Assembly: GCF_964355755.1 (NCBI RefSeq)
Contig: NC_092676.1
Span: 5,743,888 to 5,807,887 of the forward strand
Direction: 5' to 3'
Length of the DNA stretch: 64,000 nt
Source: Antedon mediterranea
Lineage: Eukaryota; Animalia; Echinodermata
The notes beneath the pieces are model-generated. The model had not been told where the DNA came from, made no database searches, and saw only the letters and a program-made list of their open reading frames with translations. Positions 6,001-48,418 of this stretch are shown here, piece after piece; position 1 is the first letter of the stretch; each line of letters starts with the position of its first letter. A program made the position numbers and the translations under genes.

Positions 6001-6830
6001 GTATACTTTAATTAGGCTAAAATATATGTTTTATTTTGTTATTCTCATGAACATAATTTTTATAGGAAATCATACAAATTTGTTATCATCTTTATGTATT
6101 TAATAATATAATTATTTAATTTACCTAAATAATGACCAATAAACAATTATTAATATCTTTAAACAATGAATAATGTAATGAAAATTGTTAATACTGTATG
6201 TGATTTTTTTTTAAATACTGTGTTTGTTGATCAAATTATAAATGATAAACTGCATTATATTCATTGTTATGAATTATTTCATTTGTTTTCTTTTTAAGTA
6301 AATTAAAACAAATAAATTAATTTTAGAAAAATACTTACAGGCGTGTCAATGCTGTCAATTTATTAAATACATTGGCTGGCAATGTACTTATTTGGTTCCC
6401 GCTCAAACTCCTTCAAAGTAAAAACAATGTACAGTAACAATTACAATATTCAAGTTGTTTGATATGTCAACTTTTATTTTCGGTATACATTTTTTTTGAA
6501 TTATTTCTATAGTCTTTCAGTCAATGATAGGGACATTATCTACATAGTAAATGCTGATGAGTATTCTTTAATTAGGCAAAAAGTAACTGTTAAAAAAGGA
6601 ATAATTTATTAATAATGGTTAAATAATGTTACTGCATAATATTCAGTATTATAAATTATTTTCTTATTTATTTAAAAACAAATTAAACGAAGGAATTAAT
6701 ATGAGTCAAAATACTTACAGTACTGTCAGTGCTGTCAATCTATCAAATACATTGGCTGGCAATGTACGTATTTGGTTCCAGCCCAAATCCCTTCAATGTA
6801 AAAGAAAGGTACATTAACAATTACAATATT
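1..6830 (-). repeat. Tandem intron+LRR-exon array of paralog A (units ~520 and ~937 bp)
   Basis: Near-identical units, each containing plus-strand atacttac-ag...gtcagtgctgtcaatctatcaaatacattggctggcaatgt...-cttcaaagt (donor, exon, acceptor on the minus strand). Variable motifs in transcript order: DLGW, SLSG, YLYI, WLDY, YLHS, DLGR, RLNS, RLNS, RLNS, YLYG. Confidence 0.93.
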
Positions 6831-12434: not shown

Positions 12435-13449
12435 TCACAATGTATTAAGTGGAATCTGTACAACTGCCGGTTGACGCACTTTGCACTTAAACATATATAC
12501 AATTGTGTAAAGATAAGGATTCACTGAGGAGTTGATGGGGATGATGAATGTCGCCGCCCAAACATATATGTCATCAGGAATCGTCATCCAACTCATCTCA
12601 GAACCAATTGCCATTACTATAATCGGACCCCAGCAACAGAAATCTGTGAAAACTATTAAGCCCAGTTTTCTCGCCATTTTCAACTGTTCTTTCCTCATCT
12701 GTCGTCTATTGACAGTGGCCCCCGATCTCTTAACCGATAAGAAGATCACGAGGTAGCTCACTGTTATTACAATGAACCCGATTCCGTTAAATACAACAAA
12801 CATGGCGACTGCATACTCCCAGCCTTGCCAATGACTTTTTGTCAGAGGTAGTGCGAGGCACACACTCTCTTTGCCATAGTAATTATCTCCAAAATATGAA
12901 ATATCTGTTATTGGAAGAAAACTCAGCACAATCCAAAATAGCCATGCCAAGCCGATAATGCTTCTACATTTTGTACGATTGAGGCGTTTTGTACTAAATG
13001 GATTAACAATGTTAATAGCTCGATCCACACTCAGCAGCATCAGTGTAAACACTGAGCATTGCCCAGAGATTGTAGAAATTGCCCCGGCAAAGCTGCAAAG
13101 AAAACTGCTCTTCCAATCCCTTGCAGCTTTAGCATACCGTCCACGATAGTGTATGTCCGCACTCGCAATGATGATCAAGTAGACTGCCATTAGCAAGTCG
13201 GACACGGCAAGATTAGTAATGAGTGTGGTCTGGACCTTATTTACATTGTTACCTAAATCATTATCCTTTTTGAACTTTCGTGATATGATGACAATCAAAT
13301 TGCCAATGACTGATGACACCCCAATGATCATCATCAATACACGGAGAACATCGCTTTTTAGCAAGTCTTCACAAGAAGCAAATGCATCAACGGGTTCGCA
13401 GACATCAATGTCACCAACAAGGCAACACAGACGAGAGAAATCGGAGTAC
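12435..13449 (-). CDS. Paralog B terminal exon: LGR type-C hinge plus rhodopsin-class 7TM domain
   Basis: Acceptor CTTAG| at 13450. YSDFSRLCC...CEPVDAFASCEDLL hinge, NLAVSDLLM (TM2), SVDRA (DRY-like), CLALP (ECL2), FTDFCCWGPI (TM6), PINSSVNPYLY (NPxxY). Intact to TGA. Confidence 0.93.
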
Positions 13450-14031: not shown

Positions 14032-14103
14032 AATTCTTTTAAATTGTTCAGTTCTTCAAAAGTTCTATCTCTGTAATTCTGTAAGTTGTTCTTTTGTAAC
14101 CAT
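14032..14103 (-). CDS. Paralog B last (divergent, non-array) LRR exon
   Basis: 72 nt, AG|...|GTAAG, WLQKNNLQNYRDRTFEELNNLKEL. Nearly identical to 36357-36428 in C. Confidence 0.85.
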
Positions 14104-15544
14104 CTATAGGATAACATATTAGAAATAAATTAAGAATAGGCTAATACATTTTGAAAAAAGTAAAGTTTTCAAACTATGGTTTATGTATGCTTTTCTTGAA
14201 GAAAATACATGAACTATGTATATTTTAACTGTTATGAATCCTCTTTATCTTTATCTTTGAATTTGGTCTGTATATTTTTGTATTGTTTTTAAGAGGGCCT
14301 CTTCAAGTCAGCTGTACTGCTGTAGTACTGTTAGAGCTACCCTTGTAAAACAAATTTGAATGAATAAATAAATATATTCATATTTTATTTATCTGTACAT
14401 AACACTATTCTAAATTCAAGACCCCTGGTGAAAACCAAATACACTTTATTTGTTTACTTGTTTGGAAGTTTTCCATTCAAATTCAGTGGTTGAATACATC
14501 CTTTGTGTTCGAAGTTCTTATTATTATTGTATGTTTATATAAATAAATTAAATTATTTTATTATTTATTTAAAAACAAATTCAACGAAAGAATCAATATG
14601 AGTCAAAATACTTACAGGTGTGTCAGTGCTGTCAATCTATCAAATACATTGACTGGCAATGTACTTATTTGGTTGCTGTTTAAACTCCTTCAAAATAAAA
14701 GAAAGGTACAGTAACAACTACAATATTCAAGTTGTTTGAAATGTCAACTTTTATTTTCAAAATACATTTTGAATGATTGTAATAGTCTTTCAGTCAATGA
14801 TAGGGACATAATCTACATAGTAAGTGCTGATAAGTATTCTCTAATTAGGCAAAAATTAACTGTTAAAATAATAATGTGTTATTCTCATTATCACGAATTC
14901 TATAGAAAATTCTAAATATTTATCATCTTAATGTATTTATCATTTTTATGTATTTAATTAAATCTCTTTAAATAATGATCAATGAACAATTATTGATAAT
15001 CTTTAAAAAATGAATAGTTTATTAATAATGGTTAAATAATGTTACTGCATAATATTCAGTATTATAAATTATTTTATTATTTATTTAACAATAAATTAAA
15101 CGAAGGAATTTATAAGAGTAAAATACTTACAGTAATGTCAGTGCTGTCAATCTATCAAATACATTGACTGGCAATGTACTTATTTGGTTACTGCCCAAAA
15201 ACCTTCAAAATAAAAGAAAGGTACAGTAACAATTACAATATTTAAGCTGTTTGAAATGTCAACTTTTATTTTCGATATACATTTTTTAATTATTTCTATA
15301 GTCTTTTAGTCAATGAGGGTCATTATCTACATAGTAAATGCTGATGAGTATTCTTTAATTAGGCAAAAATTAACTGTTAAAATAATAATGTGTTATTCTC
15401 ATTATCACAAATTCTATAGAAAATTCTTAATATTAATTATCATCTTAATGTATTTATCATTTTTATGTATTTAATTAAATCTATTTAAATAATGATCAAT
15501 GAAGAATTATTGATAATCTTTAAAAAATTAATAATTTATTAACA

Positions 15545-17272
15545 AAAATTTTTCCTGGACAAATCAGACGATTGATTAATAAACTAAAGTCAAAGAAGTC
15601 TAGTCACCCTGATGACTTGCCAATTAAACTTATAAAAGAATTCGCCTTTGAAATTGCTACCCCACTTGCCCATATTTTTAATTGTTGTCTTAATGAAGGT
15701 GTATTTCCCGAGTTATGGAAGTTAGCAACAGCCATTCCTGTTCCAAAAGTTCCTAATGTGACATCATTTCAAGACCCCAGGCCAATTTCACTTACCCCCA
15801 TCTTTGCCAAGTTGTTTGAGTCATTCCTTACTGATTGGGTGACTAGTGACATTCATCAACATTTAGATATTAAACAATTTGGTTGCCGTAAAGGCTCATC
15901 TACTAGCCATTATCTTGTGGACATGATTCAGTCTGTAATTAGTGATATTGAAAAAGGTGATTCTTTTGTGGATATTTGTGCCGTTGATTTTACGAAGGCC
16001 TTCGACCGAATTGACCATACGGTCATTGTTAGAAAGCTTGTCGACATCGGAGTGAGAACATCTATTATTCCCACCATCTGTAGCTTTCTGACGGATCGTA
16101 AAATAAATACTAAACTTAGTTCATCCTTTTCCCCTTATGCCAACATCACATGTGGGATTCCACAGGCTACAAAGCTTGGGCCAATTTTGTTTCTTATATT
16201 AGTCAATGATATCTCTATGGAAGGCTGCAGATGGTGGAAGTATGTTGATGATCTCACTCTTGGTGACACTGTTAAACATGGTAATGCCCCTAAACTTCAA
16301 TCTTGTCTTGATGACCTTACTGAGTGGTGTGATACAAATCACATGGTCCCTAAACCCTCTAAGTGTCATATCATGAGAGTTAATTTTTTGAAAAGAAATA
16401 TTCCCCCTCCTAATTATTACCTTAGCGGTACAACACTTAATGTGGTTTCGTATATAAAGCTCCTTGGACTTATAATCCAGGATGACTTGAAATGGGATAA
16501 TAATGTCAGTGACATGGTAAAAAGAGCATCCAAAAGGTTGTATACGTTATATATCCTTAGAAGGGCCAATGTACCAGTTCATGATATGATATCCGTTTAT
16601 GTTTGTTATATTCGCCCAATCTTAGAATACGCCTGCCCTGTTTGGCATGGAAGCATCAATAAGGCCCAAATGTCGACCATTGAAAGAGTGCAAAAGAGAG
16701 TTTTACGTATTATTCTGGGTCCCGCTTTCCTTACGTATGATTCAGCTCTTGAGCTTACTGATATGACCACTCTCGCATCCAGACGAGAGACGTTGATTCA
16801 AAAATTTGGAGAAAGGCTCTTGAAATCGGAATTGTACAGAACTATTTTGCCCGACTACCGCATTATTAATAGAGAGCTTAGATCAACCACGGTAGATAAA
16901 CCCCTAATTAATATACCTGTTTGCAGAACTAACCGTCTTAAGACTTCGCCTGCCCTTACCATAAGTAGAATCCTTAATTCAAACAGTACCTGATCACGCT
17001 GAAGATGGCTATGTTATAAATATTTACATATATTGGCCTATGCATTTGTATATAAATTTTGTAATCTTTTTAACATAACATAATTTTATTTTTTTAACTG
17101 ATTTTTTCAAATTTTTTAATATTTTGTATAAATTTTTGTATTTTTTTAAATGTTTCTGTTTCCATATATTTATATATATATTTTTGTAAATCAACAATTT
17201 CAGCCTTCGGGCTGCATGTTTTTTATTGTATAAACCTGAATAAATAAAATAAATAAATAAATAAATAAATAA
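15545..17272 (+). mobile_element. 5'-truncated non-LTR retrotransposon (LINE, CR1/L2-like group) in an intron of paralog B
   Basis: RT ORF 15572-16993, T-rich 3' UTR and (TAAA)n tail at ~17238-17272. The host intron consensus is interrupted at ~15542 and resumes at ~17380. Confidence 0.9.
15572..16993 (+). CDS. Reverse transcriptase (LINE ORF2 C-terminal part)
   Basis: 473 aa with RPISLT, QFG, DFTKAFD, GIPQATKLGP, YVDD, KLLG and RPILEYACPVW motifs. No endonuclease domain (truncated). Confidence 0.93.
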   Translation: MINKLKSKKSSHPDDLPIKLIKEFAFEIATPLAHIFNCCLNEGVFPELWKLATAIPVPKVPNVTSFQDPRPISLTPIFAKLFESFLTDWVTSDIHQHLDIKQFGCRKGSSTSHYLVDMIQSVISDIEKGDSFVDICAVDFTKAFDRIDHTVIVRKLVDIGVRTSIIPTICSFLTDRKINTKLSSSFSPYANITCGIPQATKLGPILFLILVNDISMEGCRWWKYVDDLTLGDTVKHGNAPKLQSCLDDLTEWCDTNHMVPKPSKCHIMRVNFLKRNIPPPNYYLSGTTLNVVSYIKLLGLIIQDDLKWDNNVSDMVKRASKRLYTLYILRRANVPVHDMISVYVCYIRPILEYACPVWHGSINKAQMSTIERVQKRVLRIILGPAFLTYDSALELTDMTTLASRRETLIQKFGERLLKSELYRTILPDYRIINRELRSTTVDKPLINIPVCRTNRLKTSPALTISRILNSNST

Positions 17273-17382
17273 AGGCCAACAGCCATAAGTTGCGTAATAA
17301 AATGCATAGTGATACCGGACCGACAGACCGACAGACCGACCGACCGACATAGGGAACTATAGAGTCGCGTCCACGCGACTAA
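17272..17382 (+). mobile_element. Short Helitron/HINE-like element with (GACC/GACA)n core and terminal hairpin
   Basis: aaggccaacagcc...gaccgacagaccgacagaccgaccgaccgac...tagagtcgcgtccacgcgactaa (stem agtcgcgt/acgcgact). Confidence 0.55.
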
Positions 17383-20300
17383 TAATGGTTAAATAATGTT
17401 ACTGCATAATATTCAGTATTATAAATTATTTTATTATTTATTTTAAAACAAATTAAACGAAGGAATTAATATGAGTCAAGATACTTACAGCTCTGTCAAT
17501 GCTGTCAATCTATCAAATACATTGGCTGGCAATGTACTTATTTGGTTACCCACCAAATCCCTTCAGAGTAAAAACAATGTACAGTAACAATTACAATATT
17601 TAAGCTGTTTGATATGTCAACTTTTATTTTCGAAATACATTTGGAATGATTGTAATAGTCTTTCAGTCAATGATAGGGACATTATATACACAGTAAATGC
17701 TGATGAGTATTCTTGAATTAGGCAAAAATTAACTGTTAAAATAATAATGTGTTATTCTCATTATCACAAATTCTATAGAAAATTCAAAATATTTATTATC
17801 ATCTTAATGTATTTATCATTTTTATGTATTTAATTAAATCTCTTTAAATAATGACCAATGAAAAATTATTGATAATCTTTAAAAAATAAATAATTTATTA
17901 ATAATGGTTAAATGTTACCGCATAATATTCAGTATTATAAATTATTTTACTATTTATTTAAAAACAAATTCAACGAAGGAATCAATATGAGTCAAAATAC
18001 TTACAGGTGTGTCAGTGCTGTCAATCTATCAAATACATTGGCTGGCAATGTACTTATTTGGTTCCAGTTCAAAGTCCTTCAAAATAAAAGAAAGGTACAG
18101 TAACAACTACAATATTCAAGTTGTTTGAAATGTCAACTTTTATTTTCGAAATACATTTTGAATAATTGTAATAGTCTTTCAGTCAATGATAGGGACATTA
18201 TCTACAGTAAATGCTGATAAGTATTCTTTAATTAGGCAAAAATTAACTGTTAAAATAATAATGTGTTATTCTCATTATCACAAATTCTATAGAAAATTCA
18301 AAATATTTATTATCATCCTAATGTATTTATCATTTTTATGTATTTAATTAAATCTCTTTAAATAATGACCAATGAAAAATTATTGATAATCTTTAAAAAA
18401 TAAATAATTTATTAATAATGGTTAAATGTTACCGCATAATATTCAGTATCATAAATTATTTTATTATTTATTTAAAAACAAATTCAACGAAGGAATCAAT
18501 ATGAGTCAAAATACTTACAGGTGTGTCAGTGCTGTCAATCTATCAAATACATTGGCTGGCAATGTACTTATTTGGTTACTGTACAAATACCTTCAAAATA
18601 AAAGAAAGGTACAGTAACAATTACAATATTCAAGCTGTTTGATATGTCAACTTTTATTTTCGAAATACATTTGGAATGATTGTAATAGTCTTTCAGTCAA
18701 TGATAGGGACATTATCTACATAGTAAATGTTGATAAGTATTCTTTAATTAGGCAAAAATTAACTCTTAAAATAATAATGTGTTATTCTCATTATCATAAA
18801 TTCTATAGAAAATTCTAAATATTTATCATCTTAATGTATTTATCAATTTTATGTATTTAATTAAATCTCTTTAAATAATGATCAATTAACAATTATTGAT
18901 AATCTTTAAAAATGAATAATTTATTAATAATGGTTAAATAATGTTACTACTATTATGAATTGTTTTATTATTTATTTAAAAACAAATTTAACGAAGGAAT
19001 TAATATGAGTCAAAATACTTACAGGTGTGTCAGTGCTGTCAATCTATCAAATACATTGGCTGGCAATGTACTTATTTGGTTACTGTACAAATACCTTCAA
19101 AGTAAAATAAAGGTACAGTAACAATTACAATATTCAAGCTGTTTAGAATCTCAACTTTTATTTTCGATATACATTTTTGAATTATTTTGTATAGTCTTTC
19201 AGTCAGTGATAGAGACATTATCTACATAGTAAATGCTGATGAGTATTCTTTAATTAGGCAAAAATTAACTCTTAAAATAATAATGTGGTATTCTCATTAT
19301 CACAAATTCTATAGCAAACTCTAAATATTTATTATCATCTTAATGTATTTATCATTTTTATGCATTTAATTAAATCTCTTTAATTAATGATCAATGAACA
19401 ATTATTGATAATCTTTAAAAAATGAATAATTTATTAATAAGGGATAAATAATGTTACTACTGTTATGAATTGTTTTATTATTTATTTAAAAACAAATTAA
19501 ACGAAGGAATCAATATGAGTCAAAATACTCACAGGTGTGTCAGTGCTGTCAATCTATCAAATACATTGGCTGGCAATGTACTTATTTTGTTACTGTACAA
19601 ATCCCTTCAAAGTAAAAACAATGTACAGTAACAATTACAATATTCAAGTTGTTTGATATGTCAACTTTTGTTTTCATATACATTTTTGAATTATTTTAAT
19701 AATCTTTCAGTCAATGATAGGGACATTATCTACATAGTAAATGCTGATGAGTACTTTTAATTAGGCAAAAATTAACTGTTACAATAATAATGTGTTATTT
19801 ATTATCACATTCTATAGTAAATTCTAAATATTTATTATCATCTTAATGTATTTATCATTTTTATGTATTTAATTAAATCTCTTTAAATAATGATCAATTA
19901 ACAATTATTGATAATCTTTAAAAAATGAATAATTTAATAAGTATGATTAAATAATGTTACAGCTTAATATTCAGTATTATGAATTATTTGATTATGTATT
20001 TAAAAACAAATTACACGAAGGAATTAATATGAGCAAAATACTTACAGTTCTGTCAGTGCTGTCAATCTATCAAATACATTGGCTGGCAATGTACTTATTT
20101 GGTTACGCCCCAAATCCCTTCAAAGTAAAAATAATGTACAGTAACAGTTACAATATTCAAGCTGTTTGATATGTCAACTTTATTTTTCATATACATTTTG
20201 AACTATTTTAATAGTCTTTCAGTCAATGGTAGGGACATTATCTACATAGTAAATGCTGATGAGTACTTTTAATTAGGCAAAAATTAACTGTTACAATAAT

Positions 20301-21719
20301 AATGTGTTATTTATTATCATTCTATAGTAAATTCTAAATATTTATTATCATCTTAATGTATTTATCATTTTTATGTATTTAATTAAATCTCTTTAAATAA
20401 TGATCAATTAACAATTATTGATAATCTTTAAAAATGAATAATTTATTAATAATGGTTAAATAATGTTACTACTATTATGAATTGTTTTATTATTTATTTA
20501 AAAACAAATACAACGAAGGAATTAATATGAGTCAAAATACTTACAGCCATGTCAGTCCTGTCAATCTATCAAATACATTGGCTGGCAATGTACTTATTTG
20601 GTTACGCCCCAAATCCCTTCAAAGTAAAACAATGTACAGTAAAAATTACAATATTAAAGCTGTTTGTCAACTATTATTTTCATATACATTATGTTATCGT
20701 CTTTCAGTCAATGATAGGGACAAAAATCTTCATAGTAAATACTGATGAGTATACTTTAATTAGGCTAAAATAAAGTGTAAAAATAAGAAAGTTTTATTCT
20801 CATATAAATACAATTTTTATAGGAAATTCTAAATATTTGTTATCATCTTTAATGTATTTAATAAAATAATAATTAGATCTCGTTAAATAATGGCAGATCG
20901 AGTAATTATTTTTATTATCTTTAAAAAGGAATAATTTATTTATAATGGTTAGATATGTTAGGCCTATATTATTACTCATTCTGATTGAGAGGGTTACACT
21001 ACTATAAGAAAACGAATTGTGCATGTCGTAGGGCCCCTCGGAAGAGCAGTTTTTATATTATTTCTACCCTACTGAAAGAAAACGAAATAAATAATTAATA
21101 AATATGTGGTGCACTCTCTCCGAACTAGTATTTCTTCCCTTTCCGATTAATAGTATATTGTACAAAATAAGACAGCTCAAAATGACGATAGTCGGTTTCA
21201 TTGCAATGAGTATCGACGTGTTCACGTTTATATTTATTTTTCGTTTTACAAACATTGAGATAACAATTATCTTCATCTACATCTTCTACTCCTCCCCACT
21301 GACTGTATCTGGAATAACACGTATTTTATAAACAATTGTCTAGGCATTGACCGCGAACCAGATAAATAAGTGTGAAATTTCTAGAAAACTAGATGTATTT
21401 CAATTTTGTTTTACCATTAAAAATGATCGGCATTATCCAGCAAGCTATTTCACGAAAACTTATTCAAAATTGTACATATAGAAACTGCTATCATCCATAA
21501 TTAAATAGTGATCAAATACAATGGTTTTTATCTTTATGGAAAGTGTTTATGTGCTCATCATTTTTTCTCAAACATTCTGTTTCTGCCTCTGTTCCATTTT
21601 ATTTCATTATAGCCTCACAACTGGGACTGCGATAAGATATTGTTAACAATATAGGAACTTGACCTTACCTCAGTCACAGAAAGAAAATCGTATTACCCAT
21701 AAAACACTGAACCGGAAAC

Positions 21720-22127
21720 AAAACTAAGATATCTCTATTAATAGAGATATCTCTATTAATAGAGATATCTTAGTTTTAAATAGATATCTCTATTAATAGA
21801 GATATCTCTGTTAATAGAGATATCTCTATTAATAGAGATATCTTAGTTTTAAATAGATATCTCTATTAATAGAGATATCTCTGTTAATAGAGATATCTCT
21901 ATTAAAAACTAAGATATCTTAATTTTAATAGAGATATCTTAGTTTTAAAAGAGATATCTCTATTAATAAAGATATAGAGATATCTCTGTTAATAGAGATA
22001 TCTCTATTAAAAACTAATATATCTTAGTTTTAAATAGAGATATCTTAGTTTTTAATAGAGATATCTTAGTTTTTAATAGAGATATCTCTATTGATAGAGA
22101 TATCTTAGTTTTAAACTAAGATATCTT
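21720..22127. repeat. Palindromic AT-rich satellite (AGAGATATCTCT / TATTAATA units)
   Basis: About 20 copies of self-complementary agatatct cores spaced by tattaata or tagttttaa. Confidence 0.88.
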
Positions 22128-23082
22128 TATTTCCGAATAAATGACAGCTTGGCGCGCCATAAAAATGATCAAATAACAACTTTCGTAGCGTACTTATATA
22201 TCGGTCGTAGTAGACACCATTTATAATTGTAAATAGAGCAAGCAACAGAAATAATCGATAATATAAACAGTGAAGGTGTTTCCCTGGTAGGCATACCAGG
22301 CCTCCTATAGTAACATTGAATCGCACCTAAATTTGATTAAATGATTAATAAATAGCATAAATAATTAGTTCAATTAGCCTCCTATAGTAAAATTGAATCG
22401 CACCTAAATAGCATAAATAATTAGTTAAATTGATAAAACAAATTGTATTTCACGTAAAGTAAAGGCCTTTATAATTGATTAGTTGAATATCTAAAACAAA
22501 TAAATTGTAGTTCACGATCGATTCAGTTGAATCGCTAAATTTACATTGTAGTTCACGTAAAAGTAAAGGCCTTCAATAATAGTTAAATTACTAAATAAAT
22601 TGTAGTTCACGTAAAGTAAATTTCTTAAATCAATATAACTGATTAGTTAAATATCTAAAACAAATTAATTGATTAATTAATTAATTAATATTTTGTATTT
22701 AATATTGAATGTCGCCACCAACGGCCATGTTGCCGGAAGTGACGGACCCGGAATCCCGTTGAACAGCGCGAGTGTGTGAAAACAAAATAACCCTGTGATA
22801 TCCACAAATTTCGATAGGTTACGCAAAATTTTGTCGTTGTAAAAGATAAAAATGGAACAATAGCGTAGTACTGAAAACAATTTTATCAAATCTACGTTTC
22901 GCGGTACATCTAAGATAGATAATGTAGGTATCCAAGGCGGAGATTTGTACGTCAGAATTAACCATAATTTATAGGCCTATATAGATAAAATGAATATTAG
23001 CAAAACAATGTAGGCCTACAGTACAAATTGCAATATTCATTTTGATATGTCAACTTTTTATTTTAAATTTTCTTTTTTTTTT

Positions 23083-23146
23083 GACGACGACGACGACAAC
23101 AATAATAATGATGATGATGATGATGATGATGATGACGATGACGATG
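23083..23146. repeat. Compound trinucleotide microsatellite (GAC/AAT/GAT)
   Basis: gacgacgacgacgacaacaataataatgatgatgat... Confidence 0.9.
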
Positions 23147-24060
23147 AATATCCTTTTAAATAATGCCCAAGGATCAATTATTATTATTTTTAATTAAAAA
23201 AAAAGAATAATTGTTGAATATTTTACAAATGATTTAAAAAATATATTGATGATGTATTGATCACATAATGAAATGATACAATGCATACAATTCATATAAA
23301 TTATCTATTTAAAAAATAAATTAAACAAAAAATTAAATATTGCACCCCTTAAACAATTTAAAAAAAAAAACATGTTGTTGTTGAATATGCCATTTTAATG
23401 TCAATAATAATAAAAAATTCTTTTTTTATTTATCCTCATTTTTTATGGTTTTTGGAGCACAATACATATTTAATAATTAATATGAGCAAAATACTTTCAG
23501 TTTTCTCAATTTATTGATAATGTTATTTTACTAATGCTTTTAAAATCTTTACTGTTTGTATAAATGTTTACATTATAAGATGATTAAATGTATATCATAC
23601 ATTATTATAACTTAATATATTACCGTATTTCTTTTTAAATCAAATTAAACAAAGAAATTAATATGAGCAAAATACTTACAGCCATGTCAATGCTGTCAAT
23701 CTATCAAATACATTGGCTGGCAATGTACTTATTATGTTATTCCTCAAATACCTTTAAAGAAAACACAATGTACATTAACAATTACAATATTCAAGCTGTT
23801 TGATATGTCAGCTTTTATTTTCGGTATACATTTTTAATTATTTTTATAGTTTTTCAGTCAATGATATTTTCTACAGAGTACATGCTGATGTGTATATTTT
23901 AAGTAGGCAAAATAAAGTGTGTTAAAAATATAAAGTATTAATAAAAAAAAATAATAATAATAATAATTAATATAATCATTATTATATATTTTAAAATACA
24001 TATTATATATATTTTTTATTCCATTTTAAATAATAAATGAAATGTTTGCACGGAAAATAA

Positions 24061-27972: not shown

Positions 27973-28674
27973 TACTGTTTTTTTAAAAACTAACAAAACA
28001 TTTTGTATAATATAGAGCCTATTTTCAAAGAAAGGGCTAAATATATTATTAGACACAGTATCAAATACCAAACAGCTAATTATGAAAATAACACACTTTC
28101 TGATACTGATAGCATAATTATTATACCTATCAACATAACGTAAATTTAAAGAATGAAGCAATCATACCGGGAAGGGTATCACTATTCCATGCGATAGTAA
28201 TATTATCATAGTCAGACTCGATGACTTGATAAATTGTAAAGTTAACATCAGTTGAGTTGATAAATTCAATACTACTATAATCACTTTCACTGCCACCATC
28301 GCTGCCACTGTCACAGCGATAACAAGGTAATACAACCAATATAACAATACAATAGTAATATGATTCCTTTTAAGATGAACATCTTCTTAACTCAATTCAC
28401 TCGTAATCAATTTAATAAACTTTACTTCTGCGAGTCCACTCAGCATATGAACAATATACTTTGTTTCATATCTTCATTTACCTGTATTTATTAAACTTTT
28501 TTAAATATTAAACATTTAGATACAGTCACCGGATGCATTAATAAAATTCTGAGTTGTTAATATTTTATAATATTTTATCCATATTATATGAGCACAAGAT
28601 TTTTAAAACACATGGACCCGTGTTACTCATAATTGTTGAAAAGTGCTAAGTTTAAAAATAGAGATAAGTATAAG

Positions 28675-34906: not shown

Positions 34907-35921
34907 TTACAATGTATTAAGTGGAATCTGTACAACTGCCGGTTGACGCACTTTGCACTTAAACATATATACAATTGTGTAAAGATAAGGATTGACTGAG
35001 GAGTTGATGGGGATGATGAATGTCGCCGCCCAAACATATATGTCATCAGGAATTGTCATCCAACCCATCTCAGAACCAATTGCCATTACTATAATCGGAC
35101 CCCAGCAACAGAAATCTGTGAAAACTATTAAGCCTAGTTTCCTCGCCATTTTCAACTGTTCTTTCCTCATCTGTCGTCTATTGACAGTGGCCCCCGATCT
35201 CTTAACCGATAAGAAGATTACGAGGTAGCTCACTGTTATTACAATGAACCCGATTCCGTTAAATACAACAAACATGGCGACTGCATACTCCCAGCCTTGC
35301 CAATGACTTTTTGTCAGAGGTAGTGCGAGGCACACACTCTCTTTGCCATAGTAATTATCCCCAAAATATGAAATATCTGTTATTGGAAGAAAACTCAGCA
35401 CAATCCAGAAAAGCCATGCGAAGCCGATAATGATTCGACATTTTGTACGATTGAGGCGTTTCGTACTAAATGGATTAACAATGTTAATAGCTCGATCCAC
35501 ACTCAGCAGCATCAGTGTAAACACTGAGCATTGCCCAGAGAGTGTAGAAATTGCCCCGGCAAAGCTGCAAAGGAAACTGCTCTTCCAATCCCTTGCAACT
35601 TTGGCATACCGTCCACGATAGTGTACATCCACACTCGCAATGATGATTAAGTAGACAGCCATTAGCAAGTCAGACACGGCAAGATTAGTAATGAGTGTGG
35701 TTTGAACCTTATTTACATTGTTACCTGAATCATTATCCTTTTTAAACTTTCGTGATATGATGACAATCAAATTTCCAATGACTGATGACACCCCAATGAT
35801 CATCATCAATACACGGAGAACTTCGCTTTTTAGTAAGTCTTCACAAGAAGCAAATGCATCAACGGGTTCGCAGACATCAATGACACCAACAAGGCAACAG
35901 AGACGAGAAAAATCCGATTTC
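34907..35921 (-). CDS. Paralog C terminal exon: hinge plus 7TM
   Basis: Acceptor CATAG| at 35922. KSDFSRLCC...SCEDLL...NPYLY...NTL*. About 10 aa differences from the paralog B exon. Confidence 0.93.
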
Positions 35922-38900
35922 CTATGAGAGAGTAAAGTAAACTTGGCAAATGAATTTGAATAGTTATTTTTTTCGGAGGCCCAAATTGTTACTCTTCGAT
36001 CCCAAAAATAATGAGTAAAGGTTTAGAATAGTCGAAGATTAATTGTGAAAGTACATTTTTATGATACTTTCGGATAAATAAGAATAATAAAATACTATCT
36101 GTTTATAAGCATAATAACACATCGAATATCATGATTGTAACATAGCCGAATTAACTATTAATTTTAATATATCTATTTAAATTGAACATAATTAAAACAT
36201 TTACCACATTCAAATTATCAAATGTAACTTACTTAACTAAAACACCGACAAATTTAACATTCAATAAAATTATTTACTGTACATATAGCAAAGAGAATAA
36301 ATACTAATAGCTGCATAAGTTTGTATGAGCATCTCTCATACTTTTATCATACTTACAATTCTTTTAAATTGTTCAGTTCTTCAAAAGTTCTATCTCTGTA
36401 ATTCTGTAAGTTGTTCTTTTGTAACAATCTATAGGATAACATATTAGAAATAAATTAAGAATAGGCTAATACATTTTGAAAAAAGTAAAGTTTTCAAACT
36501 ATGGTTTATGTATGCTTTTCTTGAAGAAAATACATGAACTATGTATATTTTAACTGTTATGAATCCTCTTTATCTTTATCTTTGAATGTGGTCTGTATAT
36601 TTTTGTATTGTTTTTAAGATGGCCTCTTCAAGTCAGCTGTACTGCTGTAGTACTGTTAGAGCTACCCTTGTAAAACAAATTTGAATGAATAAATACATAT
36701 ATTAATAATTTATTTATCTGTACATAACACTATTCTAAATTCAAGACCCCTGATGAAAACAAAATACACTTTCTTTGTTTACTTGTTTGCGAAGTTTTCC
36801 ATTCAAATTCAGTGGTTGAATACATCCTTTGTGTTCGAAGTTCTGATTATTATTGTATGTTTTTTTAACGTTTTGTACTGTAATGCCTATAGCACTGATA
36901 CATATAACTATTCAAATACAAAGCTTCCTCACATTTTGACATTGAATCGTACAGCAAAAACTTTATTTTTTATTTGTTTACAGCAATAACTCCTTTACGG
37001 CTTCACAAGTGTGTTATAAAATCATGTTAACTTACAAACGTGAAAGTGATGAAGCAAAAGAAGAAAATGCACCTGGTTCTATGGTAGTTATAGCGTTTTC
37101 CTGTAAATACCTGTTAAGATAACCAATATGTATTATTATATATCTTGTTTTTCACATTACATTAAGTAAAGTACAGATACAAGTATTATTGTATTACACA
37201 TTGCATAATATTCAATACTCTCATATACATTAATTCCTTGTCTCTTCTGGGTATTTTTTTTTAATAAGGGGATAAAAAGTTCACTTTTTTATTGAATCTC
37301 ATCAAATAATTGTTTGTTAATTATTGTTTGTTAATCTTAATATTCTATTGATTTTTTACAACAATTGATAACACAGTGACTGGTTATAATACAACAAATG
37401 TAAATTAGACTGGATCATAATAATAGAAAGTAGTTCTGTTTCTGGGATATACGTCAGTAAATACTGATGGCCTGGGTATACTTTAATCAGGCTTAAATAT
37501 ATGTTTATTTTGTTATTTTTATAGGAAATCATAACAATTTGTTATCATCTTTATGTATTTAATAATATAATTATTTAATTTACCTAAATAATGACCAATA
37601 CACAATTATTAATATCTTTAAACAATGAATAATTTAATGAAAATTGTTAATACTGTATGTGATTTTTTTTTTAAATACTGTGTTTTTTGATCAAATTATG
37701 AATGATAAACTGCATAATATTCATTATTATGAATTATTTCATTTGTTTTCTTTTTAAATAAATTAAAACAAACAAATTAATTTTAGAAAAATACTTACAG
37801 TTCTGTCAGTGCTGCCAATCTATCAAATACATTGGCTGGCAATGTACGTATTTTGTTATTGTACAAATACCTTCAAAGTAAAAGAAAGATACAGTAACAA
37901 TTACAATATTCAAGCTGTTTGAAATGTCAACTTTTATTTTCAATATACATTTTTGAATTATTTGTATAGTCTTTCAGTCAATGGTAGGGACATTATCTAC
38001 ATAGTAAATGCTGATGAGTATTCTTTAATTAGGCAAAAATTAACTGTTAAAATAATAATGTGTTATTTATTATCACAAATTCTATAGTAAATTCTAAATA
38101 TTTATTATCATCTTTATGTATTTATCATTTTTATGTATTTAATTAAATCTCTATAATGACCAATGAACAATTATCGATAATCTTTTAAAAATGAAAAATG
38201 TATGAATAATGGCCTCTTCAAGTCAGCTGTATACTGCTCTAGTACTCTTATAGATACCCTTGTAAACAAATTTGAATTAATAAATAAATTTATTTTTTAT
38301 AGCAAATTCTAATTATTATTTGTTTTATTATTATCCTAATGTTTTATTATCATTTATCATTTATTATCTACATAATAAATACTGATGGCCTGGGTATACT
38401 TTAATTAGGCTAAAATATATGTTTTATTTTGTTATTCTCATGAACATAATTTTTATAGGAAATCATACAAATTTGTTATCATCTTTATGTATTTAATAAT
38501 ATAATTATTTAATTTACCTAAATAATGACCAATAAACAATTATTAATATCTTTAAACAATGAATAATGTAATGAAAATTGTTAATACTGTATGTGATTTT
38601 TTTTTAAATACTGTGTTTGTTGATCAAATTATGAATGATAAACTGCATTATATTCATTGTTATGAATTATTTCATTTGTTTTCTTTTTAAGTAAATTAAA
38701 ACAAATAAATTAATTTTAGAAAAATACTTACAGTTTTGTCAGTGCTGTCAATCTATCAAATACATTGGCTGGCAATGTACTTATTTGGTTTCTGTCCAAA
38801 TGCCTTCAAAGTAAAAACAATGTACAGTAACAATTACAATATTCAAGTTGTTTGATGTGTCAACTTTTATTTTCGGTATACATTTTTTTTTAATTATTTG

Positions 38901-41900
38901 TATAGTCTTTCAGTCAATGATAGGGACATTATCTACATAGTAAATGCTGATGAGTATTCTTTAATTAGGCAAAAATTAACTGTTAAAATGAGAATGTGTT
39001 ATTCTCATTATCACAAATTCTATAGAAGATTCTAAATATTTATTATCATCTTAATGTATTTATCATTTTTATGTATTTAATTAATTCTCTTTAAATAATT
39101 ATCAATGAACAATTATTGATAATCTTTAAAAAATGAATGATTTATTAATAATGGGTAAATAATGTTACTGCATAATATTCAGTATTATAAATTATTTTAT
39201 TATTTATTTAAAAACAAATTAGACGAAGGAATTAATATGAGTCAAAATACTTACAGCCATGTCAGTGCTGTCAATCTATCAAATACATTGGCTGGCAATG
39301 TGCTTATTTGGTTACCGCTCAAATCCCTTCAAAGTAAAAACAATGTACAGTAACAATTACAATATTCAAGCTGTTTGATATGTCAACTTTTATTTTCGGT
39401 ATACATTTTTTTTGAATTATTTCTATAGTCTTTCAGTCAATGATAGGGACATTATCTACATAGTAAATGCTGATGAGTATTCTTTAATTAGGCAAAAATT
39501 AACTGTTAAAATAATAATGTGTTATTTATTATCACAAATTCTATAGTAAATTCTAAATATTTATTATCATCTTTATGTATTTATCATTTTTATGTATTTA
39601 ATTAAATCTCTATAATGACCAATGAACAATTATCGATAATCTTTTAAAAATGAAAAATGTATGAATAATGGCCTCTTCAAGTCAGCTGTATACTGCTCTA
39701 GTACTCTTATAGATACCCTTGTAAAACAAATTTGAATTAATAAATAAATTTATTTTTTATAGCAAATTCTAATTATTATTTGTTTTATTATTATCCTAAT
39801 GTTTTATTATCATTTATCATTTATTATCTACATAATAAATACTGATGGCCTGGGTATACTTTAATTAGGCTAAAATATATGTTTTATTTTGTTATTCTCA
39901 TGAACATAATTTTTATAGGAAATCATACAAATTTGTTATCATCTTTATGTATTTAATAATATAATTATTTAATTTACCTAAATAATGACCAATAAACAAT
40001 TATTAATATCTTTAAACAATGAATAATGTAATGAAAATTGTTAATACTGTATGTGATTTTTTTTTAAATACTGTGTTTGTTGATCAAATTATGAATGATA
40101 AACTGCATTATATTCATTGTTATGAATTATTTCATTTGTTTTCTTTTCAAATAAATTAAAACAAATAAATTAATTTTAGAAAAATACTTACAGTTTTTTC
40201 AGTGCTGCCAATCTATCAAATACATTGGCTGGCAATGTACTTATTTGGTTATAGCTCAAATACCTTCAAAGTAAAAACAATGTACAGTAGCAATTACAAT
40301 ATTCAAGCTGTTTGAAATGTCAACTTTTATTTTCAATATACATTTTTGAATTATTTTAATAGTCTTTCAGTCAATGATAGGGACATTATCTACATAGTAA
40401 ATGCTGATGAGTATTCTTTAATTAGGCAAAAATTAACTGTTAAAATGATAATGTGTTATTCTCATTATCACAAATTCTATAGAAGATTCTAAATATTTAT
40501 TATCATCTTAATGTATTTCCCATTTTTATGTATTTAATTAAATCTCTTTAAAAAATGATCAATGAACAATTATTGATAATCTTTAAAAAATGAATAATTT
40601 ATTAATAATTGTTAAATAATGTTACTGCATAATATTTAGTATTATAAATTATTTTATTATTTATTTAAAAACAAATTACACGAAGGAATTAATATGAGTC
40701 AAAATACTTACAGTGTTGTCAGTGCTGTCAATCTATCAAATACATTGGCTGGCAATGTACTTATTTGGTTTCTGCTCAAACTCCTTCAAAGTAAAAACAA
40801 TGTACAGTAACAATTACAATATTCAAGGTGTTTGATATGTCAACTTTTATTTTCGGTATACATTTTTTTTGAATTATTTCTATAGTCTTTCAGTCAATGA
40901 TAAGGACATTATCTACATAGTAAATGCTGATGAGTATTCTTTAATTAGGCAAAAAGTAACTGTTAAAATAATAATGTGTTATTTATTATCACAAATTCTA
41001 TAGTAAATTCTAAATATTTATTATCATCTTTATGTATTTATCATTTTTATGTATTTAATTAAATCTCTTTAAATAATGACCAATGAACAATTATTGATAA
41101 TCTTTAAAAAATGAATGATTTATTAATAATGGGTAAATAATGTTACTGCATAATATTCAGTATTATAAATTATTTTATTATTTATTTAAAAACGAATTAC
41201 ACGAAGGAATTAATATGAGTCAAAATACTTACAGCCATGTCAGTGCTGTCAATCTATCAAATACATTGGCTGGCAATGTGCTTATTTGGTTACCGCTCAA
41301 ACCCCTTCAAAGTAAAAACAATGTACAGTAGCAATTACAATATTCAAGCTGTTTGAAATGTCAACTTTTATTTTCAATATACATTTTTGAATTATTTTAA
41401 TAGTCTTTCAGTCAATGATAGGGACATTATCTACATAGTAAATGCTGATGAGTATTCTTTAATTAGGCAAAAATTAACTGTTAAAATGATAATGTGTTAT
41501 TCTCATTATCACAAATTCTATAGAAGATTCTAAATATTTATTATCATCTTAATGTATTTATCATTTTTATGTATTTAATTAAATCTCTTTAAATAATGAC
41601 CAATGAACAATTATTGATAATCTTTAAAAAATGAATAATTTATTAATACTGGTTAAATAATGTTACTGCATAATATTTAGTATTATAAATTATTTTATTA
41701 TTTATTTAAAAACAAATTAAACGAAGGAATAATATGAGTCAAAATACTTACAGTTCTGTCAGTGCTGTCAATCTATCAAATACATTGGCTGGCAATGTGC
41801 TTATTTGGTTATACCACAAATTCCTTCAAAGTAAAAACAATGTACAGTAACAATTACAATATTCAAGCTGTTTAGAACCTCAACTTTTATTTTCGGTATA

Positions 41901-44900
41901 CATTTTTTTTGAATTATTTGTATAGTCTTTCAGTCAATGATAGGGACATTATCTACATAGTAAATGCTGATGAGTATTCTTTAATTAGGCAAAAAGTAAC
42001 TGTTAAAATAATAATGTGTTATTTATTATCACAAATTCTATAGTAAATTCTAAATATTTATTATCATCTTTATGTATTTATCATTTTTATGTATTTAATT
42101 AAATCTCTATAATGACCAATGAACAATTATCGATAATCTTTTAAAAATGAAAAATGTATGAATAATGGCCTCTTCAAGTCAGCTGTATACTGCTTTAGTA
42201 CTCTTATAGATACCATTGTAAAACAAATTTGAATTAATAAATAAATTTATTTTTTATAGCAAATTCTAATTATTATTTGTTTTATTATTATCCTAATGTT
42301 TTATTATCATTTATCATTTATTATCTACATAATAAATACTGATGGACTGGGTATACTTTAATTAGGCTAAAATATATGTTTTATTTTGTTATTCTCATGA
42401 ACATAATTTTTATAGGAAATCATACAAATTTGTTATCATCTTTATGTATTTAATAATATAATTATTTAATTTACCTAAATAATGACCAATAAACAATTAT
42501 TAATATCTTTAAACAATGAATAATGTAATGAAAATTGTTAATACTGTATGTGATTTTTTTTTAAATACTGTGTTTGTTGATCAAATTATGAATGATAAAC
42601 TGCATAATATTCATTATTATGAATTATTTCATTTGTTTTCTTTTTAAATAAATTAAAACAAACAAATTAATTTTAGAAAAATACTTACAGTTCTGTCAGT
42701 GCTGCCAATCTATCAAATACATTGGCTGGCAATGTACTTATTTGGTTATAGGTCAAATACCTTCAAAGTAAAAACAATGTACAGTAGCAATTACAATATT
42801 CAAGCTGTTTGAAATGTCAACTTTTATTTTCAATATACATTTTTGAATTATTTTAATAGTCTTTCAGTCAATGATAGGGACATTATCTACATAGTAAATG
42901 CTGATGAGTATTCATTAATTAGGCAAAAATTAACTGTTAAAATGATAATGTGTTATTCTTATTATCACAAATTCTATAGAAGATTCTAAATATTTATTAT
43001 CATCTTAATGTATTTCCCATTTTTATGTATTTAATTAAATCTCTTTAAAAAATGATCAATGAACAATTATTGATAATCTTTAAAAAATGAATAATTTATT
43101 AATAATGGTTAAATAATGTTACTGCATAATATTCAGTATTATAAATTATTTTATTATTTATTTAAAAACAAATTACACGAAGGAATTAATATGAGTCAAA
43201 ATACTTACAGCCATGTCAGTGCTGTCAATCTATCAAATACATTGGCTGGCAATGTACTTATTTGGTTACTGTGCAAATACCTTCAAAGTAAAAACAATGT
43301 ACAGTAACAATTACAATATTCAAGGTGTTTGAAATGTCAACTTTTATTTTCAATATACATTTTTGAATTATTTCTATAGTCTTTCAGTCAATGATAGGGA
43401 CATTATCTACATAGTAAATGCTGATGAGTATTCTTTAATTAGGCAAAAATTAACTGTTAAAATGATAATGTGTTATTTATTATCACAAATTCTATAGTAA
43501 ATTCTAAATATTTATTATCATCTTAATGTATTTATCATTTTTATGTATTTAATTAAATCTCTTTAAATAATGATCAATGAACAATTATTGATAATCTTTA
43601 AAAAATGAATAATTTATTAATACTGGTTAAATAATGTTACTGCATAATATTTAGTATTATAAATTATTTTATTATTTATTTAAAAACAAATTAAACGAAG
43701 GAATTAATATGAGTCAAAATACTTACAGTTCTGTCAGTGCTGTCAATCCATCAAATACATTGGCTGGCAATGTACTTATTTGGTTATCGTGCAAATCCCT
43801 TCAAAGTAAAAACAATGTACAGTAACAATTACAATATTCAAGTTGTTTGATATGTCAACTTTTATTTTCGGTATACATTTTTTTTGAATTATTTCTATAG
43901 TCTTTCAGTCAATGATAGGGACATTATCTACATAGTAAATGCTGATGAGTATTCTTTAATTAGGCAAAAATTAACTGTTAAAATGATAATGTGTTATTCT
44001 CATTATCACAAATTCTATAGAAGATTCTAAATATTTATTATCATCTTAATGTATTTCCCATTTTTATGTATTTAATTAAATCTCTTTAAAAAATGATCAA
44101 TGAACAATTATTGATAATCTTTAAAAAATGAATAATTTATTAATAATGGTTAAATAATGTTACTGCATAATATTTAGTATTATAAATTATTTTATTATTT
44201 ATTTAAAAACAAATTAAACGGAGGAATTAATATGAGTCAAAATACTTACAGCTGTGTCAGTGCTGTCAATCTATCAAATACATTGGCTGGCAATGTGCTT
44301 ATTTGGTTACTGTTCAACCTCCTTCAAAGTAAAAACAATGTACAGTAACAATTACAATATTCAAGCTGTTTGATATGTCAGCTTTTATTTTCAGTATACA
44401 TTTTTTTTGAATTATTTGTATAGTCTTTCAATCAATGATAAGGAAATTATCTACATAGTAAATGCTGATGAGTATACTTTAATTAGGCAAAAATTAACTG
44501 TTAAAATAATAATGTGTTATTTATTATCACAAATTTTATAGTAAATTCTAAATATTTATTATCATCTTAATGTATTTATCATTTTTATGTATTTAATTAA
44601 TTCTCTTTAAATAATTATCAATGAACAATTATTGATAATCTTTAAAAAATGAATGATTTATTAATAATGGGTAAATAATGTTACTGCATAATATTCAGTA
44701 TTATAAATTATTTTATTATTTATTTAAAAACAAATTACACGAAGGAATTAATATGAGTCAAAATACTTACAGCCATGTCAGTGCTGTCAATCTATCAAAT
44801 ACATTGGCTGGCAATGTGCTTATTTGGTTACCGCTCAAACCCCTTCAAAGTAAAAACAATGTACAGTAGCAATTACAATATTCAAGCTGTTTCAAATGTC

Positions 44901-47689
44901 AACTTTTATTTTCAATATACATTTTTGAATTATTTTAATAGTCTTTCAGTCAATGATAGGGACATTATCTACATAGTAAATGCTGATGAGTATTCTTTAA
45001 TTAGGCAAAAATTAACTGTTAAAATGATAATGTGTTATTCTCATTATCACAAATTCTATAGAAGATTCTAAATATTTATTATCATCTTAATGTATTTCCC
45101 ATTTTTATGTATTTAATTAAATCTCTTTAAAAAATGATCAATGAACAATTATTGATAATCTTTAAAAAATGAATAATTTATTAATAATTGTTAAATAATG
45201 TTACTGCATAATATTTAGTATTATAAATTATTTTATTATTTATTTAAAAACAAATTAAACGAAGGAATTAATATGAGTCAAAATACTTACAGGTGTGTCA
45301 ATGCTGTCAATCTATCAAATACATTGGCTGGCAATGTGCTTATTTGGTTACCGTTCAAATCCCTTCAAAGTAAAAACAATGTACAGTAACAATTACAATA
45401 TTCAAGCTGTTTGATATGTCAGCTTTTATTTTCGGTATACATTTTTTTTGAATTATTTGTATAGTCTTTCAGTCAATGATAGGACATTATCTACATAGTA
45501 AATGCTGATGAGTATTCTTTAATTAGGCAAAAAGTAACTGTTAAAATAATAATGTGTTATTTATTATCACAAATTCTATAGTAAATTCTAAATATTTATT
45601 ATCATCTTAATGTATTTATCATTTTTATGTATTTAATTAAATCTCTATAATGACCAATGAACAATTATCGATAATCTTTTAAAAATGAAAAATGTATGAA
45701 TAATGGCCTCTTCAAGTCAGCTGTATACTGCTCTAGTACTCTTATAGATACCCTTGTAAAACAAATTTGAATTAATAAATAAATTTATTTTTTATAGCAA
45801 ATTCTAATTATTATTTGTTTTATTATTATCCTAATGTTTTATTATCATTTATCATTTATTATCTACATAATAAATACTGATGGACTGGGTATACTTTAAT
45901 TAGGCTAAAATATATGTTTTATTTTGTTATTCTCATGAACATAATTTTTATAGGAAATCATACAAATTTGTTATCATCTTTATGTATTTAATAATATAAT
46001 TATTTAATTTACCTAAATAATGACCAATAAACAATTATTAATATCTTTAAACAATGAATAATGTAATGAAAATTGTTAATACTGTATGTGATTTTTTTTT
46101 AAATACTGTGTTTGTTGATCAAATTATGAATGATAAACTGCATTATATTCATTGTTATGAATTATTTCATTTGTTTTCTTTTTAAGTAAATTAAAACAAA
46201 TAAATTAATTTTAGAAAAATACTTACAGTTTTGTCAGTGCTGTCAATCTATCAAATACATTGGCTGGCCATGTACTTATTTGGTTACCGTACAACAACCT
46301 TCAAAGTAAAAACAATGTACAGTAACAATTACAATATTCAAGCTGTTTGAAATGTCAACTTTTATTTTCGGTATACATTTTTTTTGAATTATTTCTATAG
46401 TCTTTCAGTCAATGATAGGACATTATCTACATAGTAAATGCTGATGAGTATTCTTTAATTAGGCAAAAAGTAACTGTTAAAAAAGGAATAATTTATTAAT
46501 AATGGTTAAATAATGTTACTGCATAATATTCAGTATTATAAATTATTTTCTTATTTATTTAAAAACAAATTAAACGAAGGAATTAATATGAGTCGAAATA
46601 CTTACAGGTGTGTCAATGCTGTCAATCTATCAAATACATTGGCTGGCAATGTACTTATCCGGTTATAACTCAAATCCCTTCAATGTAAAAAAAAGTTCAT
46701 TAACAATTACAATATTTGATATTCCATTCATACAGGTATAGGCCTACAGTGATTGTGCTTGGGGTATATAAAGTGACCCCACAAAATGAAATTATTTCTG
46801 ATAACTCTAAGTACTAAATTTCAAATTGTCATTAGGTCATTATTACATATTTTAAAATATATATTATATATATTTTTAAATTCCACGTTTTATAATAAAC
46901 TTACAATGAAATGTTTGCACTGACTGACTTACAATTCTGTTACTGGAATATGATCATTATACTCGTTGATGGTTGCGATGTTATTAATACTCCATGGAGG
47001 ACGACATTCCACTCTGTGACCGTAAGTAGACCTCTTAGGCGCACCACATTCACAGTCGGCTGGACATTCTGCATTTGTTAAAAACAAGACAACTCGGAGA
47101 TACGTCAAGAAAGGAAAAGTGGAAACTATCTTTTTCAATATATATGTAATGTTACAAATGCAATCAAATCAAATAAAATGTCTAGCTGTGACCGCTCAAT
47201 TAAATATAATTCGAATCAGATAAAAAAATTAATTCATAATCATGTAAAAATAAATACTGTATAGTACAGTATATAAACAAAAGTTGAACATTAACATTTA
47301 AATCAGATTGTCTTCGAAGTTTAATAACAGTACTGTTGTTATAAACCAACAAAACAGTATAGTTTGTATGAGGCATACTGTTCAAAGACAGGGCTACATC
47401 TATTATTAAATACAGTATCAAATACCAAACAGCTAATTAATTATTATATTAAACAATTAATAAATTAAAAAAATGAAGCAATCATACCGGGAAGGGTATT
47501 AGGATTCCAGGCGATAGTAGTAGGATCATAGTCAGAGTTGATGACGTGATTGGTAACGTTAACGTAAGTAGAGCTGCCACTGTCACTGTCACCACCACTG
47601 GGAAGGGTGTCACTAAAACAACGAGAACAAGGTAATACAACCAATATAACAATACAATACAGTAGTATGATTCCTTTTAAGATGAACAT
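34907..47689 (-). CDS. LRR-GPCR paralog C, complete (20 coding exons, ~859 aa; LGR type-C/GRL101-like 7TM with 15 VLR-like variable LRRs plus 2 capping LRRs)
   Basis: Exons: 47488-47689, 46933-47068, 72-nt exons starting 46606, 46227, 45291, 44771, 44250, 43727, 43209, 42689, 41752, 41233, 40712, 40192, 39255, 38732, 37799, then 37036-37110 (75 nt, YLQENAITTIEPGAFSSFASSLSR), 36357-36428, 34907-35921. Total 2580 nt, all GT-AG, no internal stop. Confidence 0.9.
37450..46720 (-). repeat. Tandem intron+LRR-exon array of paralog C
   Basis: 15 units. Motifs in transcript order: DLSY, LLYG, DLNG, GLSG, RLNS, DLHD, YLHS, YLTY, NLWY, GLSG, SLSR, YLSY, DLSG, HLDR, YLYN. Confidence 0.93.
46933..47068 (-). 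CDS. Paralog C exon 2 (LRRNT)
   Basis: Same translation as A exon 2, canonical splice sites. Confidence 0.88.
47488..47689 (-). CDS. Paralog C exon 1 (signal peptide plus short Ser/Gly linker)
   Basis: MFILKGIILLYCIVILVVLPCSRCFSDTLPSGGDSDSGSSTYVNVT...NTLP. 202 nt, phase 1. Confidence 0.85.
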
Positions 47690-48167: not shown

Positions 48168-48418
48168 AATGTTATATATACCGTTCAAAAATGCTATATA
48201 CCTTTTTAAATGTAATATACCTTTTTAAATGTTACATACCTTTTTAAATGTTATAGACCCTTTTAAACGTTATAGACCTTTTTAAATGTTATATACCTTT
48301 TGAAATGTTATATACCTTTTTAAATGTTATATACCTTTTAAATGCTATATACCTTTTTAAATGTTATAGACCTTCTTGAATGTTATATACCTTTTAAAAT
48401 GTTATATACCTTTTAAAC
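48168..48418. repeat. ~20-bp minisatellite
   Basis: aatgttatatacctttttaa, about 12 copies. Confidence 0.9.

Follow-up and report, generated by a model that had tools for sequence, protein, structure and literature searches.

The stretch analysed here, referred to as the window, comprises 64,000 nt from the crinoid Antedon mediterranea (contig NC_092676.1, positions 5,743,888 to 5,807,887) and contains three tandem genes, designated A, B and C, which encode GRL101-like G-protein-coupled receptors (GPCRs) and in which arrays of short exons form the leucine-rich repeat (LRR) ectodomains. A fuzzy search of the window detected 35 such exons, all on the minus strand, 72 nt long, bordered as ag/G...CT/gt and in phase 2, each encoding one 24-residue LRR, with a Leu codon split at every exon-exon junction. 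Fifteen of them make up the array of gene C (37799..46677) in tandem units of exon and intron, the introns measuring about 448 or 865 nt; ten, all open, form the array of gene B (14616..23751), and ten belong to that of gene A (148..6790), which continues past the window end. The interval 37799..46677, given for the original prediction, covers only the 15 exons of gene C, and the other 20 lie elsewhere; that first reading had also missed the GPCR identity of the host genes and the spread of variants by recombination. Beyond the 35 exons, a DNA profile search of the window returned only weak opposite-strand self-matches (43 matches, the 6 weakest of which were inspected). The model of gene C, based on predicted splicing, has 20 exons from 47689 to 34907 on the minus strand, with 19 of 19 introns of GT-AG type, and encodes 859 amino acids with no stop: a hydrophobic N-terminus, a Cys-rich cap, the 15 array repeats, two divergent repeats (17 LRRs in all), a hinge and a seven-transmembrane (7TM) domain.

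The variation among the repeats is concentrated in four codons, corresponding to sites x3, x5, x7 and x8 in the standard LxxLxLxxNxL numbering. Within the exon, x5, x7 and x8 occupy nt 2-4, 8-10 and 11-13, and x3 occupies nt 68-70; in unit C07 (43209..43280, minus strand), for example, they fall at 43277-43279, 43271-43273, 43268-43270 and 43211-43213, respectively. The earlier counts were all reproduced: over the 35 exons 9, 11, 10 and 8 different residues are found at x3, x5, x7 and x8, the xLxx motifs are of 27 different kinds, 14 of the 15 in gene C being distinct, and none of the 140 variable codons is a stop. The interleaved Leu codon is spared, as had been claimed (TTG in 34 of 35 exons, TTA in one), and interleaved Leu and Asn codons together show a single synonymous variant in 70. 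Site x10 is slightly variable (Q 30, K 3, R 1, I 1), x2 is Thr in 34/35 exons, and exons C05, A07 and A09 are identical. Repeat C02 (46227-46298, minus strand) carries the sole change of a framework Leu to Trp (TTG vs TGG) among the 35 exons, which may disturb the repeat. Two intron types, of about 448 and 865 nt, occur in the gene C array (37871-46605); in 7 of 10 instances the long type, whose copies differ by a median of only about 1.3%, comes after an exon that ends in Lys.

Over the 35 exons, the 12 variable bases have a nucleotide diversity of 0.538, compared with 0.032 for the framework. Comparison with adjacent introns, suggested earlier as a check, agreed with the claim: intron diversity is 0.069 upstream (32 of the 35 units, three with a non-homologous or deleted flank being dropped) and 0.019 and 0.063 in two downstream types (10 and 24 units), so that the variable codons stand at about 8-28 times the intron level, and relaxation of constraint alone is for this reason insufficient. 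The framework had been described as almost invariant even at silent sites. Its diversity is indeed low, but there is nothing special about its silent sites, since their synonymous diversity (pS 0.058) equals the intron level; this near-invariance reflects recent homogenisation rather than to special constraint. At the 12 variable nucleotides 32 of the 36 possible derived bases are present, vs 0.53 per intron site. With each codon taken as one locus, the mutation parameter would have to be 13-15 times that of the introns to yield its 11-12 alleles (Ewens, P about 1e-7 to 1e-8), a test which is insensitive to recombination but approximate, the repeats not being a population sample.

The same contrast appears when genes A and C are compared at matching positions. 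Proceeding along the genes, the differences are 1/419 in an intron, 0/136 in exon 2, 3/255 in an intron, 11/72 in the first LRR exon, 3/307 in an intron, 13/72 in the second LRR exon and 17/857 in an intron, and they cluster inside exons and within about 25 nt of them. In a paralog with a different framework, P0186, ten repeats carry 3, 6, 4, 6 and 3 different residues at x2, x3, x5, x7 and x8, with at most 2 elsewhere. In contigs of four out of four public sequencing runs, bearing two organism labels, the same nucleotides vary, including the variable bases of unit C07, and the intervening Leu and Asn codons are almost untouched; assembly error is excluded because the same bases vary in all four runs. 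That surface residues of a satellite-like array drift neutrally without constraint, or that the assembly is in error, might be suspected from the decay of gene B and from the difficulty of assembling long near-identical repeats; the excess over introns, the contrast between A and C, the recombination data reported below and the agreement of the four runs contradict it, and this explanation is regarded as very improbable.

The origin of the codon diversity was evaluated from the alleles themselves. As had been noted, variable codons frequently differ at 2-3 bases (1318 of 2380 pairs), but in the network of the 45 codon alleles 40 of 41 links are changes of one base, the exception being TGG at x3. 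Transitions account for 17 of 42 steps in the network (hand count) vs 43 of 97 in introns; the share being similar, there is no deaminase-like bias. Diversity-generating retroelements are characterised by adenine-directed change copied from a template repeat. Such an element was considered and rejected: 8 silent third-position framework adenines are invariant in the 35 exons, which counts against adenine-directed mutagenesis, and all four bases vary at the variable sites.

A neutral model confined to these codons, with the transition ratio estimated from introns, predicts that 45 alleles would encode 31.6 amino acids, and 38 are observed (P 0.007). All four variable sites include Trp (P 7e-5), and none has Cys, Pro, Ala or Met (P 0.002), the absence of Cys by itself not being significant (P 0.11-0.12). 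On these sequence comparisons, selection on amino acids is needed for the four-codon pattern, and the diversifying selection on the binding face proposed originally is supported by the excess of diversity over introns, by an amino acid richness and a use of Trp above the neutral expectation, and by the predicted location of the sites described below. The targeted mutational process offered as its alternative found no support. In its broader form, a targeted mutator or a somatic assembly similar to that of the variable lymphocyte receptors (VLRs) would make the diversity; this would fit with the synonymous diversity raised within the same codons, with motifs moving as short cassettes and with a reverse-transcriptase open reading frame inside gene B. 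Against it stand the single-step network without transition bias, the single synonymous variant among Leu and Asn codons, the invariant silent adenines and the completeness of gene C in the assembly. The process is thus quite improbable, and selection explains the four-codon diversity better than a targeted mutator.

Exchange among repeats was evaluated on 22 units of genes A and C, at sites outside the variable codons. The four-gamete test found 189 of 990 pairs of sites incompatible, with a minimum number of recombination events (Rm) of 7, and compatibility between neighbouring sites exceeds that after shuffling (P 0.0005). Five pairs of units share the same 186 nt of upstream flank, and three of these pairs are different at 4 of 9 variable bases; Mantel correlations between flanks and variable codons are weak (r 0.01-0.19, P < 0.05 in 2 of 6). 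By these tests repeats are exchanged within and between genes, and exon-sized conversion tracts combined with unequal crossing-over would be the likely means.

The location of the variable sites was derived from paralog P0186, which stood in for gene C in structure prediction (54-row alignment, predicted local distance difference test score, pLDDT, 91.7). The model, which matches the folds of LGR4, TSHR and FSHR, has a three-residue strand at x3-L-x5 every 24 residues. In LRR proteins the strands form the concave face and the following loop the ascending surface, both of which bind ligands (PMC4598782, PMC3900441). All four sites had been placed on the beta-strand of the concave face: in the predicted structure this holds for x3 and x5, whereas x7 and x8 are located on the adjoining loop after the strand.

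Regarding splicing, three contig joints with a 72-nt period, intron-free through the split Leu codon, were found in run X5, which is guessed to be RNA yet also has intron contigs, and 0 in the other three runs. These joints support splicing of family members as modelled. When the four runs were compared with the whole of gene C, no intron-skipping joint was present among the matches listed; the splice-type joints of 72-nt period concern the joining of repeat exons, contigs being unable to show their skipping.

The remaining exons define the host genes. In gene C, exon 1 (47488..47689, minus strand, as are all exons below) contains the ATG, a hydrophobic, signal-peptide-like stretch by hydropathy and a Ser/Gly/Asp linker, and exon 2 (46933..47068), identical in gene A, encodes a Cys-rich, N-cap-like segment with 4 Cys and a putative cap role; neither matched a Pfam family (exon 2 at a threshold of E 0.1). 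The array is followed by a divergent 75-nt LRR exon absent from gene B (37036..37110), by a divergent last LRR exon of 72 nt (36357..36428) and by an intact exon for the hinge and a rhodopsin-family 7TM domain (34907..35921; Pfam 7tm_1, E 3e-33). The last two exons are carried by the Antedon mediterranea database protein P0182, named GRL101-like, whose 7TM exon is 100% identical over 337 aa, although its database model, of 366 aa, is without the LRR array. Surveys that rely on annotation would overlook the array, as it is missing from the database gene models. In gene A, exons 1 and 2 lie at 7602..7881 and 7047..7182; the Ser/Gly linker of exon 1 is expanded by in-frame hexamers and is 26 residues longer than in gene C, suggesting a linker of variable length.

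Gene B retains its last LRR exon (14032..14103) and an intact exon for hinge and 7TM domain (12435..13449; Pfam 7tm_1, E 3e-33), which compared with that of gene C shows nonsynonymous and synonymous divergences (pN and pS) of 0.014 and 0.11 (pN/pS 0.13). Its homologue of exon 1 (28168..28382) is frameshifted, with stops in the ATG frame, exon 2 is missing, the 75-nt LRR exon has been lost (14104-14615), and one intron has received a plus-strand reverse-transcriptase open reading frame (15524..16993, Pfam RVT_1, 489-aa frame), probably a truncated fragment of a non-LTR retrotransposon. Because the LRR exons and the 7TM exon are open despite this damage, gene B is probably either a pseudogene of recent origin or a gene with a different start; it could still be a donor for conversion. 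An AT-rich, GATATC-rich tandem array with 18-nt and 73-nt periods (21720-22132) lies between its first and second LRR exons, and a non-coding direct duplication of roughly 0.8 kb (24060-25720), recognised by eye, between its exon 1 and first LRR exon. Upstream of gene C, further non-coding tandem arrays were found at 48189-48414, 51603-52282 and 54715-55849, with periods of 19, 187, 119 and 143 nt.

Given the rhodopsin-family 7TM domain and the in-frame LRR ectodomain and hinge of the gene model, the window genes are LRR-containing GPCRs (LGRs). A FastTree phylogeny of the 7TM domain, built on 54 rows picked from about 190 proteins and weak at its deep nodes, places genes B and C among 18 Antedon proteins from 9 contigs (support 1.0). 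The sister of this clade is an Anneissia group; the clade itself lies within crinoid receptors bearing LDLa domains and is separated from the clade of insect, urchin and hemichordate GRL101 (support 0.895, with the same weakness of deep nodes). No LDLa motif was matched in the six frames of the window, in the gene C model or in paralogs P0186 and P0188. Owing to the separate 7TM clade and the lack of the motif in the window, 'GRL101-like' is used here as a label and does not denote orthology. For paralog P0146, the best sequence match in the PDB is RXFP1 (7tmw, E 1e-88). The window genes resemble GRL101, the type C LGRs and RXFP1 (PMC8286064) in the LRR ectodomain, the Cys hinge and the rhodopsin-family 7TM domain; they differ from GRL101 in being without LDLa, multi-copy and outside the canonical clade, and in having 17 LRRs against six in Lymnaea GRL101. 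A survey reports a single GRL101 per ambulacrarian (PMC8286064). Two scallop proteins, P0072 and P0073, are long-LRR GPCRs with diverged repeats and no LDLa in their Pfam lists, and may represent a parallel expansion.

The explanation favoured here, with moderate confidence, is that germline recombination and positive selection keep rewriting four predicted binding-face residues, most likely tracking changing foreign ligands. Ordinary point mutations at the four codons would be retained by selection; unequal crossing-over would alter the number of repeats (15, 10, 10 or more), and exon-sized conversion would carry motifs between repeats and paralogs, homogenising framework and introns. Since the strand is interrupted by the intron, x3 is encoded in one exon and x5, x7 and x8 in the next, so that shuffling would yield new strand combinations, and the variable repeats thus shuffled would feed a nearly constant 7TM signalling module. 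Taken by itself, this evolutionary mechanism (point mutation, selection at four codons, shuffling of exon units and a near-constant signalling module) is very likely. A putative immune role of the receptors would be in line with precedents linked to nonself recognition (PMC3341825, PMC4986451, PMC12297450).

Two other functions would go with the same mechanism. The receptors might be chemosensory and respond to environmental or settlement cues, as the expression of a tandem GRL101 expansion in the tentacles and palps of the apple snail (PMC6573481) and of a GRL101-like gene raised in starfish sensory tentacles (PMC6267866) would suggest; continuing change on a large LRR face, next to a 7TM domain that hardly varies, would better fit an evolving ligand than small stable odorants, and a chemosensory role is considered possible but unlikely. 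A similarly low probability is given to a fast-evolving ligand of the same species (a gamete, mate or self/nonself marker), or to evasion by host proteins of a parasite that attaches to them. Such arms races are expected to leave the same sequence signature, and parasite recognition of GRL101 genes has been raised as an option (PMC12297450). The window, however, showed no hypervariable gene for a matching ligand, and a family with at least 18 proteins spread over 9 contigs fits a repertoire more readily than a single ligand-receptor pair.

Several points weigh against the favoured explanation, in which foreign ligands drive recurrent selection at these residues. The four sites were initially chosen for their variability. 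Inside them pN/pS is just 1.47 (1.9 with Jukes-Cantor correction), and synonymous diversity is 0.385 vs 0.058 in the framework, with 2-6 of the 42 network steps synonymous; saturation and path-averaging account for only part of this rise, and a locally raised rate of mutation or conversion is conceivable. The conservation of third bases is no better than in the neutral model (P about 0.2), and the simulations are simple models rather than recombination-aware codon likelihoods. As to the paratope-like residue bias of the original prediction, the part concerning Trp stands, whereas the wider set Y/W/H/D/S/G/R/N is weakly enriched (P 0.02-0.07). The predicted structure belongs to paralog P0186 and not to gene C, and the spliced joints of run X5 belong to family members, not specifically to gene C. 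Gene B looks damaged, and GRL101-like expansions elsewhere have been interpreted as chemosensory (PMC6573481, PMC6267866).

Homogenised repeats with a few hypervariable binding residues are known from algal ROCO proteins and fungal NLR sensors. Should the immune interpretation be true, a basal deuterostome would have in its germline a set of variable LRR receptors connected to G-protein signalling, which would bear on the origin of VLR-like recognition and on GPCRs as pattern receptors. As four codons per repeat are involved, specificity is open to direct testing.

Within the literature searched, which lay largely outside subscription journals and excluded supplements, no report of such an array in an animal GPCR was retrieved, nor any paper on Antedon LRR receptors or on diversifying selection in echinoderm LGRs; the accessible part of PMC6321704 contains nothing on LRR-GPCRs, and material relevant to this novelty may exist in supplements to the articles on snails and algae. 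A tandem, under-annotated GRL101-like cluster exists in the snail Biomphalaria sudanica, where the SudRes2 region is associated with schistosome resistance (PMC12297450); its genes have CTL and LDL domains, the top variants fall in a neighbouring gene, and no homogenised hypervariable LRR array is described in the accessible text.

The VLRs of agnathans (PMC3900441) likewise consist of 24-residue LRRs of the typical class, variable on the concave surface. They are somatically assembled from an incomplete gene and end in an LRRCT and a stalk, whereas gene C is a complete germline gene ending in a hinge and a 7TM domain, and no extra same-strand exon copies resembling VLR donor cassettes were found in the window. 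It is doubtful, though conceivable, that in crinoids a GPCR family of the hormone-receptor type became a repertoire of variable antigen receptors, convergent on lamprey VLRs, with additional diversification inside the individual through alternative splicing or somatic conversion of its interchangeable LRR exons in immune cells.

The closest parallels to the germline process favoured here are found outside animals. The LRR-ROCO genes of brown algae (Zambounis 2012, PMC3341825; Teng 2024, PMC11378527) share 72-bp phase-2 exons encoding one LRR each, shuffling of exons, selection at four sites of the concave face and a proposed immune role, and alternative splicing occurs in the algal genes; their products are LRR-GTPases, whereas the window genes encode animal cell-surface GPCRs and have introns homogenised too. 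In fungal NWD/NLR genes such as het-e (PMC4986451), which function in nonself recognition, repeats undergo concerted evolution within and between genes, with four diversifying positions per repeat; these are WD, ANK or TPR repeats on NOD proteins, with neither LRR nor GPCR. Of the traits common to these systems, the window genes show one repeat per symmetric exon (35/35), repeat exchange and, by the allele-count and simulation tests, positive selection on few predicted binding-face sites. In place of a ROC-COR or NOD signalling domain they have a 7TM domain. The zinc fingers of PRDM9 are a further analogue. The genes therefore work like the algal and fungal systems, as LGRs that are neither VLRs nor orthologues of GRL101.

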